Source: Escherichia coli
GTDB taxonomy: Bacteria > Pseudomonadota > Gammaproteobacteria > Enterobacterales > Enterobacteriaceae
Length of the DNA stretch: 64,000 bases
Assembly (NCBI RefSeq): GCF_036507355.1
Contig: NZ_AP027877.1
Direction: 5' to 3' (one strand)
In this document: positions 5,379 through 6,830 of the stretch, one piece after another
Numbering within the stretch: the stretch's first letter is position 1
Layout of the letters: every line of letters begins with the position of its first letter
Position numbers and translations under genes: made by a program
The notes under the pieces: generated by a model
Told to the model about the DNA's origin: nothing
Seen by the model: only the letters and a program-made list of their open reading frames with translations
The model's database searches: none

Positions 5379-5391
5379 CAGCGCGAGGCTG
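5379..5391. repeat. 13-bp target-site duplication of IS4, copy 1 (CAGCGCGAGGCTG)
   Basis: Identical 13-mer directly abuts both IS4 termini (5379-5391 and 6818-6830). Confidence 0.85.
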
Positions 5392-6817
5392 TAATGCCAG
5401 TCAGTTAAGCAACTGACTGGCTCTTTTTCGGGGCTGTGGGGTATTTCCAGGGCCTCTCCTTTACCACTCTCGGGAAGGCCCTTTCCCTTCTTGTCGGTAA
5501 TTTCACAAGTTGTCCCATACTTGCAAGATCGCGCATCAGCTCCGGTATACGTCCCGGTGAAGCGCCCTGCAATATCATCAGCATTCTCATCACCATTCCG
5601 CATGATTCTGAGAAGCTCAGTTGATTTGGCCAGTAACCTTTCAGATGTTCCGCCATTTTAATCATCTGATATCTCACCAGATTATAAGCCAGTAAGACAC
5701 CCCACAGCTCTTGCTCCACAAGCTCAGGCTTTTTACTTCTCAGCGTCAGCCTGCTCAGTTGCATCGTCTGTTTTATCTCCCTGTATCCCAGTTCGATTTC
5801 CCAGCGATGACTGTACAGATCCGCCATTTCTCCTCCGGGGAAGCGCATGGCGTCCGTCATCGACGTCAGCAGATGGCAGACTTTTCCTTTGCGCGTCACG
5901 GTCAGCAGGCGGGCTGTCACCTCATTTCCCAGTCCCGGCCACTTTTTTCGTGCCTGCGGGCTGGTTTTCAGCTTCACCAGATGATCGCCTTTACCCAGTT
6001 TTCTGATCTCTTCATATTGCGCTCCCTTTCTGAGAGGGATCATCCAGTGGCGGTGTTCTCCCGCCAGGCTCCAGGCATTTAACAATCCCAGTGAGTAATA
6101 ACCTTTATCCATTAACGTCAGAGTGTTATCGCCGGTTTGTTCTATAAGTTGCTCAGCAAGCTCATTTTCGCTGTTCTTCATCGTGCCGAAGGCTGCAGCC
6201 GTCAGCAGATGGCTGGTCAGTTCCATCTGGCAGACCATTTTGACCTGCGGGTAGAGCGCCGGGGTCCCGGCATGTGTCTGGCGAGGGAAGGCTGCATCGT
6301 TCTCTGGTGTATCCGGTGTGCGCCAGAACACACCATCGATGGCCAGCAGGGTCAGGCCGCACCAGTGCGGATGCGGCGTGGCGTTATGCCAGAGCTGCGC
6401 TGTTTTCGTGAACACGCGGCGGACAGCCTCACTTCCCAGGCGCTGGCGGGCCTGAATAACAGCACTGGGGGCAACGAAGGGGCGATTGCCCGGCAGCATG
6501 ATGTCCAGGCGATTCACAATCTGGTGAAGAGGTTCTTTACGCTCAAGCGCCATGCCAACAATACACCAGACCATCATTTCGAGGGGAAGACGGCGCTTGC
6601 GTAGCGTTACAGTACCTGATTCGGCAAGGCAACGAGAGATGAGTTCGGGGTCGAGGTAATCCCCCAGAGAAGTCAGTGGGTTACGCAGAGAATCGTAACG
6701 GGATACCAGATCAAGAGCCTGTCCAATGTGCATAAAAAAATCCGGAAACGAGTGAGCGTTTCCGGATTCTTACACAGCCACTGGATCGGTCAACTGATCC
6801 TTAACTGATCGGCATTA
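5392..6817 (-). mobile_element. IS4 insertion sequence (1426 bp) with 18-bp imperfect terminal inverted repeats
   Basis: Termini TAATGCCAGTCAGTTAAG (5392-5409) and reverse complement TAATGCCGATCAGTTAAG (ending 6817); contains a 442-aa IS4 transposase; flanked by a 13-bp direct repeat. Confidence 0.92.
5405..6733 (-). CDS. insG: IS4 transposase
   Basis: 442-aa [43 protein letters not shown]..., recognised as IS4 transposase. Confidence 0.93.
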
Positions 6818-6830
6818 CAGCGCGAGGCTG
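6818..6830. repeat. 13-bp target-site duplication of IS4, copy 2 (CAGCGCGAGGCTG)
   Basis: See copy 1; with the IS removed the duplicated bases rebuild the hairpin AAAGGCCAGCGCGAGGCTGGCCTTT. Confidence 0.85.

Follow-up and report, generated by a model that had tools for sequence, protein, structure and literature searches.

An IS4 insertion inside the metK terminator of Escherichia coli and the target preference that it appears to reflect

The 64,000-nt stretch of Escherichia coli DNA analysed here (contig NZ_AP027877.1; hereafter the window) carries, between the genes metK and galP, a complete copy of the insertion sequence (IS) IS4 lying inside the transcription terminator of metK. The element measures 1426 bp (5392..6817, minus strand) and its transposase gene is co-directional with both neighbours: metK (6856..8010, minus strand), whose coding sequence is intact and ends 25 nt from the insertion, and galP (3586..4980, minus strand), whose start codon at 4980 lies 412 bp away. 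The termini of the element, TAATGCCAGTCAGTTAAG at its start and CTTAACTGATCGGCATTA at its end, form an 18-bp terminal inverted repeat that matches at 16 of 18 positions, one copy at the 3′ end of the transposase gene (5392..5409) and the other at its 5′ end (6800..6817). A repeat search finds the 13-mer CAGCGCGAGGCTG exactly twice in the window, once at each edge of IS4 (5379..5391 on the galP side and 6818..6830 on the metK side), which identifies the two copies as a target-site duplication. The single open reading frame (ORF) of the element (5405..6733, minus strand) encodes a 442-aa transposase with the Pfam domains Nterm_IS4 (PF13006, E = 3e-33) and DDE_Tnp_1 (PF01609, E = 1e-31). Together with the termini and with a nucleotide identity of 99.02% to the IS4 of K-12 MG1655 (14 substitutions in 1426 bp), these features bear out the first-pass annotation, which had been made from the letters alone and had proposed a 1426-bp IS4 with these boundaries, flanked by duplicated 13-mers and placed about 410 bp upstream of galP.

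The window copy shares with the K-12 copy (insG; IS4 family, IS4 subgroup in ISfinder) its length of 1426 bp, its 18-bp inverted repeats matching at 16 of 18 positions, its 442-aa DDE transposase and a duplication within the 11–14-bp range. The two differ in location, the K-12 copy being found near nanX in a non-hairpin site with the duplication CAGAACCAAGAT. The window IS4 belongs to a rarer sequence type, its exact transposase occurring in only 36 index blocks, including GCA_013889615.1 and GCA_013899545.1. Its intact ORF, intact ends and perfect duplication suggest, as far as sequence can tell, that this copy is competent for transposition.

Deleting IS4 and one copy of the repeat in silico yields AAAGGCCAGCGCGAGGCTGGCCTTT. 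Read on the metK strand, this rebuilt site folds at −17.0 kcal/mol into a hairpin with a 10-bp stem and a loop of 5 nt, behind which comes UUUUUCUUUU. The distance from the metK stop codon to the start of the hairpin is 19 nt, with no gene in between, and the next gene, galP, is found ~430 bp beyond. Both the folding and the position after the stop codon agree with the earlier proposal that the empty site is the rho-independent terminator of metK. Natural alleles that lack the element carry exactly the predicted hairpin, the opposite of what would have refuted the first-pass annotation: a 500-nt query made of the joined flanks finds an uninterrupted match in 5368 of the 5426 complete genomes of E. 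coli, DSM 103246 matches the reconstructed empty site at 100% over 500 bp, and the terminator hairpin read directly in the IS-free sequences of DSM 103246 and K-12 is identical. The K-12 MG1655 metK–galP interval, for its part, lacks ~13 bp (CACCGCGGTGAGG-like) on the galP side of the terminator A-tract, its hairpin being unchanged. The 13-bp staggered duplication in the window is centred on the hairpin loop, and the native metK terminator is destroyed by IS4. The proximal outer part of its stem, AAAGGC as read in the metK direction (6831..6836, minus strand), stays attached to metK; the distal half (5366..5378, minus strand), which holds the other outer bases of the stem together with the U-tract and reads GGCCUUUUUCUUUU in the same direction, is now separated from metK by the whole element. 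According to folding, the remnant attached to metK retains only −7.5 kcal/mol and has no U-tract.

IS4 occupies the same terminator in other strains. Among the 5426 complete genomes, it is found there in the window orientation in 44 and in the opposite orientation in 8; the occupied allele is annotated as IS4 transposase in 52 public genomes. From place counts we estimate that the complete genomes hold ~5100 IS4 copies, ~1% of which sit in the metK terminator. We compared ten fetched occupied alleles with that of the window, and all 11 carry a 1426-bp IS4 at the identical position. They nevertheless comprise three IS4 sequence types, 10–15 nt apart, and as many as 59 nt in 2.9 kb separate the flanks of the sampled alleles. 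In strain JX21CE8 the duplication is 12 bp long, against the usual 13 bp. Strain 582 carries a variant target, CACCGCGAGGCTG, in both copies of the duplication, so that the variant must predate the entry of IS4; in UPEC132 a single copy is mutated (CTGCGCGAGGCTG), a change that arose after insertion. The strain 582 variant also weakens one stem pair of the metK terminator. Taken together, the three IS4 types, the 12- and 13-bp duplications, the variant target allele and the flank differences indicate at least six independent insertions at this site.

Could all these alleles descend from one ancestral insertion, spread by inheritance and homologous recombination, with no hotspot at all? Part of the record fits this idea, since 38 of the 44 same-orientation genomes fall in one junction class of 96.3% identity and may represent one inherited insertion, those sampled from it (L006 and L007) having a single IS4 type. 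As an account of the whole set it is very improbable, because both orientations occur, because element type, duplication length and target sequence all vary in the ways just described, and because IS4 has entered six further sites in either orientation as well (seven with metK). By these comparisons, the metK terminator is a recurrent IS4 target, a hotspot, which the first-pass annotation had not noticed, and the insertion in the window is an ordinary IS polymorphism. Our search of the literature retrieved no paper linking IS4 with metK and galP.

The properties of the site become clear when it is set among other IS4 targets. We surveyed contigs that encode exact IS4 transposase variants and obtained 82 loci, corresponding to 32 distinct sites and hence to 64 arms; L036 (N-masked flanks), L026 (unrecognisable IS4 end) and L032 and L033 (flanks too short) could not be used. 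Counting from the cut, the arms carry A at position −6 in 63 of 64 cases, at −5 in 58 and at −4 in 50, and C at +1 in 46 and at +4 in 47. The target shape is accordingly AAA-NNN/C-NN-C ... G-NN-G/NNN-TTT, where the slash marks the cut; the two tracts are 18–20 bp apart and the cuts fall 3 bp inside each of them across the 32 sites. Duplications measure 11–14 bp across the 82 loci, and their length goes with the distance between the tracts (Spearman rho = 0.75 for 28 classes; 0.63 per site, p = 0.007), spacers of 18, 19 and 20 bp mostly giving duplications of 12, 13 and 14 bp, respectively. The orientation of the element, tentatively ascribed to the longer of the A- and T-runs, showed no relation to it (12 versus 15 classes).

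The metK site reads AAA-GGC/CAGCGCGAGGCTG/GCC-TTT, with a spacer of 19, cuts 3 bp from each tract and the +1 and +4 C on both arms (CAGC ... GCTG). IS4 probably landed at the metK terminator because the terminator matches this symmetric target. How selective the match is can be seen from the window with IS4 removed (62.6 kb): of its ~100 AAA-N18-20-TTT sites, none but the metK terminator forms a strong centred hairpin, and no other has C at both +1 and +4 of each arm.

Hairpins and gene ends are common among the surveyed targets. At 13 of the 32 sites the duplication lies at the centre of a perfect palindrome of 8 bp or more, compared with 17 of 20,000 random positions, and 20 of the 32 sites fold at −12 kcal/mol or better. 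We relied on the strict count of centred palindromes in place of a looser hairpin criterion (minimum free energy ≤ −12 kcal/mol with at least 7 enclosing pairs), which 12.5% of random 44-mers pass. At 17 of the 32 sites, IS4 has inserted within 120 nt after the stop codon of an ORF that is 150 aa or longer, and six sites separate convergent genes; gene-end examples are adhE/tdk, bamD/raiA, eno, rpoD/mug, degS/mdh, ssb/yjcB, aroA and tynA/feaB. Over ~30 bp, the flank of some IS4 copies elsewhere even agrees with that of the metK site. One of them is the typA copy of IAI39, inserted in AAAAAAAAACCTGCCAGCGATGGCAGGTTTTTT, 38 nt past the typA stop codon; the loop lies at the middle of its 12-bp duplication. 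In five genomes (loci L054, L055, L056, L058 and L060) IS4 has entered the hairpin GAAAACCCCCAGCTAGGCTGGGGGTTCC with an 11-bp duplication. An IstB gene of IS21 type is found in the region, joined at most of these loci by genes for a DDE_Tnp_1_4 transposase and a beta-lactamase; this looks like a resistance-gene context.

Such an excess of palindromes and stable folds, far above background, is what one would expect if IS4 recognised DNA structure, that is, a cruciform or single-strand hairpin formed by the terminator palindrome, rather than two half-site sequences. We consider this unlikely for several reasons. The non-palindromic sites, among them those within the coding sequences of bcsG and DUF4049 and the resident K-12 position, keep the AAA-N3/C arms, which speaks for recognition of two half-sites by their sequence and against recognition of structure. 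Whatever the spacer length, the cuts keep their distance of 3 bp from the tracts. In addition, a palindrome that meets one half-site necessarily meets both, which would explain the enrichment with no need for structure recognition. A terminator with a 5′ A-tract and a 3′ T-tract supplies both half-sites, and that of metK has accordingly been hit recurrently and independently; the cause of the recurrence appears to be target preference.

Selection offers a different explanation for the same recurrence, in which a split terminator would beneficially alter the expression of metK or galP. metK is an essential gene under tight regulation, galP encodes a useful transporter, the two orientations are unequally represented (44 versus 8), and genomes reveal surviving insertions only. 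Yet 31 other sites with no functional relation share the sequence shape of the metK terminator, which is itself the one full-consensus match in 62.6 kb, so that target preference suffices as an explanation. Moreover, only ~1% of genomes are occupied, with no sign of a sweep, and the predicted terminators of IS4 would minimise any change in expression. For these reasons selection, although not without arguments in its favour, strikes us as quite improbable.

Preference for a symmetric A-tract/T-tract target agrees with the classical IS4 sites, for which a consensus AAA-N20-TTT was reportedly given by Mahillon & Chandler in 1998. IS4 is reported always to enter galT at one site, and the K-12 galT gene contains a single AAA-N18-21-TTT locus, AAAAACCTGCACCCATGGGTACGTTTT. 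IS4 is also said to have entered the pheST attenuator once, in work of Mayaux et al. from 1984; the K-12 rplT–pheS interval holds two AAA-N18-21-TTT loci, the attenuator terminator and the rplT terminator. Eight de novo IS4 insertions were reportedly recovered in the mutation-accumulation lines of Lee et al. in 2016. The metK site, as AAA-N19/20-TTT, is like the galT and pheS-leader loci. To the classical specificity the present survey adds where the cuts fall, a preference for C at +1 and +4, a duplication length that depends on how far apart the tracts are, and the finding that gene-end terminators account for about half of the natural sites. The literature that we searched contained no paper linking IS4 with terminators, and the word 'terminator' is absent from PMC2266710. 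The half-site rule, the link between length and spacing, the preference for gene ends and the inward-facing terminator-like hairpins at both ends of the element, described below, thus go somewhat beyond the published record that we found, extending a specificity known for decades.

Other mobile elements exploit comparable places. Class C group II introns insert after terminators. ISRm22, of the IS4 family, inserts only in repetitive extragenic palindromes (REPs; PMC1525189) and, like the other REP-targeting elements IS1397, ISKpn1 and ISPpu9/10 (PMC1525189), resembles IS4 in choosing short extragenic palindromes and so avoiding gene disruption. IS4 differs from these elements in that its targets are hairpins flanked by A- and T-tracts, not the REP consensus, in that it cuts inside the stem-loop and destroys the hairpin, and in that it also uses non-palindromic two-arm sites.

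Having lost their own terminator, metK transcripts would enter IS4. The first-pass annotation had suggested that they may read into the element; the entry stands, and its extent can be narrowed, since modelling predicts that the read-through is probably short, ~85–100 nt. The prediction comes from a hairpin within the element, AAUCCGGAAACG-CUCACU-CGUUUCCGGAUU followed by a U-run (6734..6771, minus strand), which we consider a candidate substitute terminator. It consists of a 12-bp GC-rich stem, a 6-nt loop and U7, is located 46–84 nt inside IS4, directly before the transposase AUG, and has a predicted folding energy of −22.4 kcal/mol (z = −4.9 in a 71-nt context), compared with −17.0 kcal/mol for the native metK terminator. 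All three IS4 types keep it, with a G-C to G.U replacement as the sole change. That replacement comes from a C to T substitution at IS4 position ~66–71 (window 6750, minus strand), in the 3′ arm of the hairpin, in the commonest IS4 type. The same substitution creates the TTG that serves as start of the 448-aa InsG of the NCBI annotation, as against the 442-aa product.

A promoter-like sequence, TTGACC-16-TG-AAGAAT, is recognised by consensus match at 6766..6793 (minus strand). The −10 box of this sequence coincides in part with the 5′ arm of the internal hairpin, which by prediction would form in full only when transcription begins outside IS4; the transcript of IS4 itself might lack this arm and escape termination. 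At the other end of the element, an 11-bp hairpin followed by TCTTTTTC (5396..5431, plus strand) is also terminator-like and faces transcription entering from the galP side; this inward-facing hairpin plus UCUUUUUC folds at −18.7 kcal/mol. In the eight genomes with IS4 in opposite orientation, this is the predicted structure that metK transcripts would meet. Folding detects no good terminator where transcription would leave IS4 on the galP side, only a remnant 4-bp stem of −4.6 kcal/mol, and a promoter scan found no promoter-like site facing out of IS4 towards galP. Rfam gave no match in the interval 4900–8300.

IS10 and IS50 offer a precedent for a protective structure at an element end, their end structures shielding the transposase genes from outside transcription by sequestering translation signals. 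The IS4 hairpin resembles them in lying near the element end, upstream of the transposase start. It appears to differ in having the architecture of a terminator (hairpin and U7) in place of sequestration of a ribosome-binding site, and in that a further terminator-like hairpin, likewise facing inward, is present at the opposite end of IS4. By analogy with IS10 and IS50, the hairpin and U-run of IS4 could be a translational or stability element and no terminator, in which case metK transcription would continue through IS4 towards galP. The lack of a good terminator past the transposase gene would leave such transcription free to proceed, and a consensus terminator scan did not call the internal hairpin, apparently because greedy stem extension consumed the U-run, for which reason we evaluated it by folding. 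We find this alternative doubtful, if the most serious of those considered: 12 GC-rich base pairs, a 6-nt loop and seven U make up a canonical terminator architecture, predicted to be stronger than the native one, and its conservation across the three IS4 types speaks in the same sense.

On the galP side, the first-pass annotation had noted an intact GalR operator. Intact it is, but the operator is not single: two are present, as in the published positions of OE and OI (PMC5110547, Table 1), and both are preserved. OE(galP), CTGAAACCGATTACAC (5245..5260, minus strand), is identical to the published sequence, and OI(galP), GTGTAATCGATTACAC (5063..5078), has 0 mismatches to the consensus GTGNAANCGNTTNCAC (PMC5110547). 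The nearer of the two, OE, is 132 bp from IS4, and we infer no effect of the element on galP.

We can thus propose, with good confidence, that IS4 transposed into the metK terminator as a symmetric target, that this site has been hit repeatedly, that metK transcripts would end at the IS4 hairpin, and that galP control is left untouched. The anatomy, the empty allele, the recurrence and the target motif are seen in the sequences themselves; termination at the hairpin and the lack of an effect on galP are deduced from them. In the proposed sequence of events, a complete and probably active IS4 would make a 13-bp staggered cut centred on the loop of the metK hairpin, the same terminator being hit independently and repeatedly in E. 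coli, in both orientations. The native terminator is lost upon insertion, and metK transcripts would then meet the inward-facing hairpin and U-run of IS4 after ~50–85 nt, before the transposase start. The likely outcome is a metK mRNA with a 3′ untranslated region ~90 nt longer and little read-through into either the transposase gene or galP. Besides the large shared junction class, other points weigh against this scenario. Termination of metK transcripts at the internal hairpin is a structural prediction, for a hairpin that the consensus scan did not list. By one definition of a hairpin or another, 12 to 19 of the 32 sites lack one, which means that a terminator is not strictly required. The sites were sampled from few genomes per transposase variant and represent survivors of selection, not de novo events.

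Taken as a whole, the window has no exact match among the 5426 complete RefSeq genomes, the best being DSM 103246 at ~99.0%, and comparison with this strain reveals other differences. Between speB and loiP there is a 1277-bp insertion (12787–14063) with a 326-aa ORF (12978–13958, plus strand) containing IS110-family DEDD transposase domains; the REP-like sequence GCCTTATCCGACCTTG occurs beside it, at 12773 and 12845, and the insertion may be an IS621-like, REP-targeting element. Between mscS and argO, a 2.2-kb insertion (32076–34292) contains an ORF for a DctP-family solute-binding protein (32140–33216, minus strand) and a 309-aa ORF without Pfam match (33238–34167, minus strand). Overlapping BLAST alignments also point to a repeat or copy-number difference at 46084–46383, in the ibsC toxin region downstream of serA.

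For the metK–galP locus itself, the insertion seems to be of little consequence, as it spares both genes and the galP operators, and a terminator inside IS4 probably takes over from the lost one. Its interest lies rather in what it suggests about the element. The target survey implies a set of predictable IS4 landing pads (the metK terminator, adhE/tdk, bamD/raiA, eno, rpoD/mug, degS/mdh, typA and ssb), a list useful in E. coli for IS-based typing and for making sense of structural variation, and the half-site rule provides a testable explanation for the variable length of IS4 duplications. One step further, a hypothesis to which we give even chances depicts IS4 as a terminator-homing, self-insulating IS: its protomers would read AAA-N3/C-N2-C half-sites, flexible spacing between them would set the 11–14-bp duplications, A-tract terminators would be the commonest such shape, and inward terminators at both ends would replace the one that is split. 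If these inward-facing terminators work, IS4 would be a transposon that repairs its own regulatory damage; and if the hypothesis as a whole is true, terminator homing and self-insulation would explain how IS4 is tolerated behind essential or highly expressed genes such as metK, rpoD, eno, ssb, typA, adhE and mdh.

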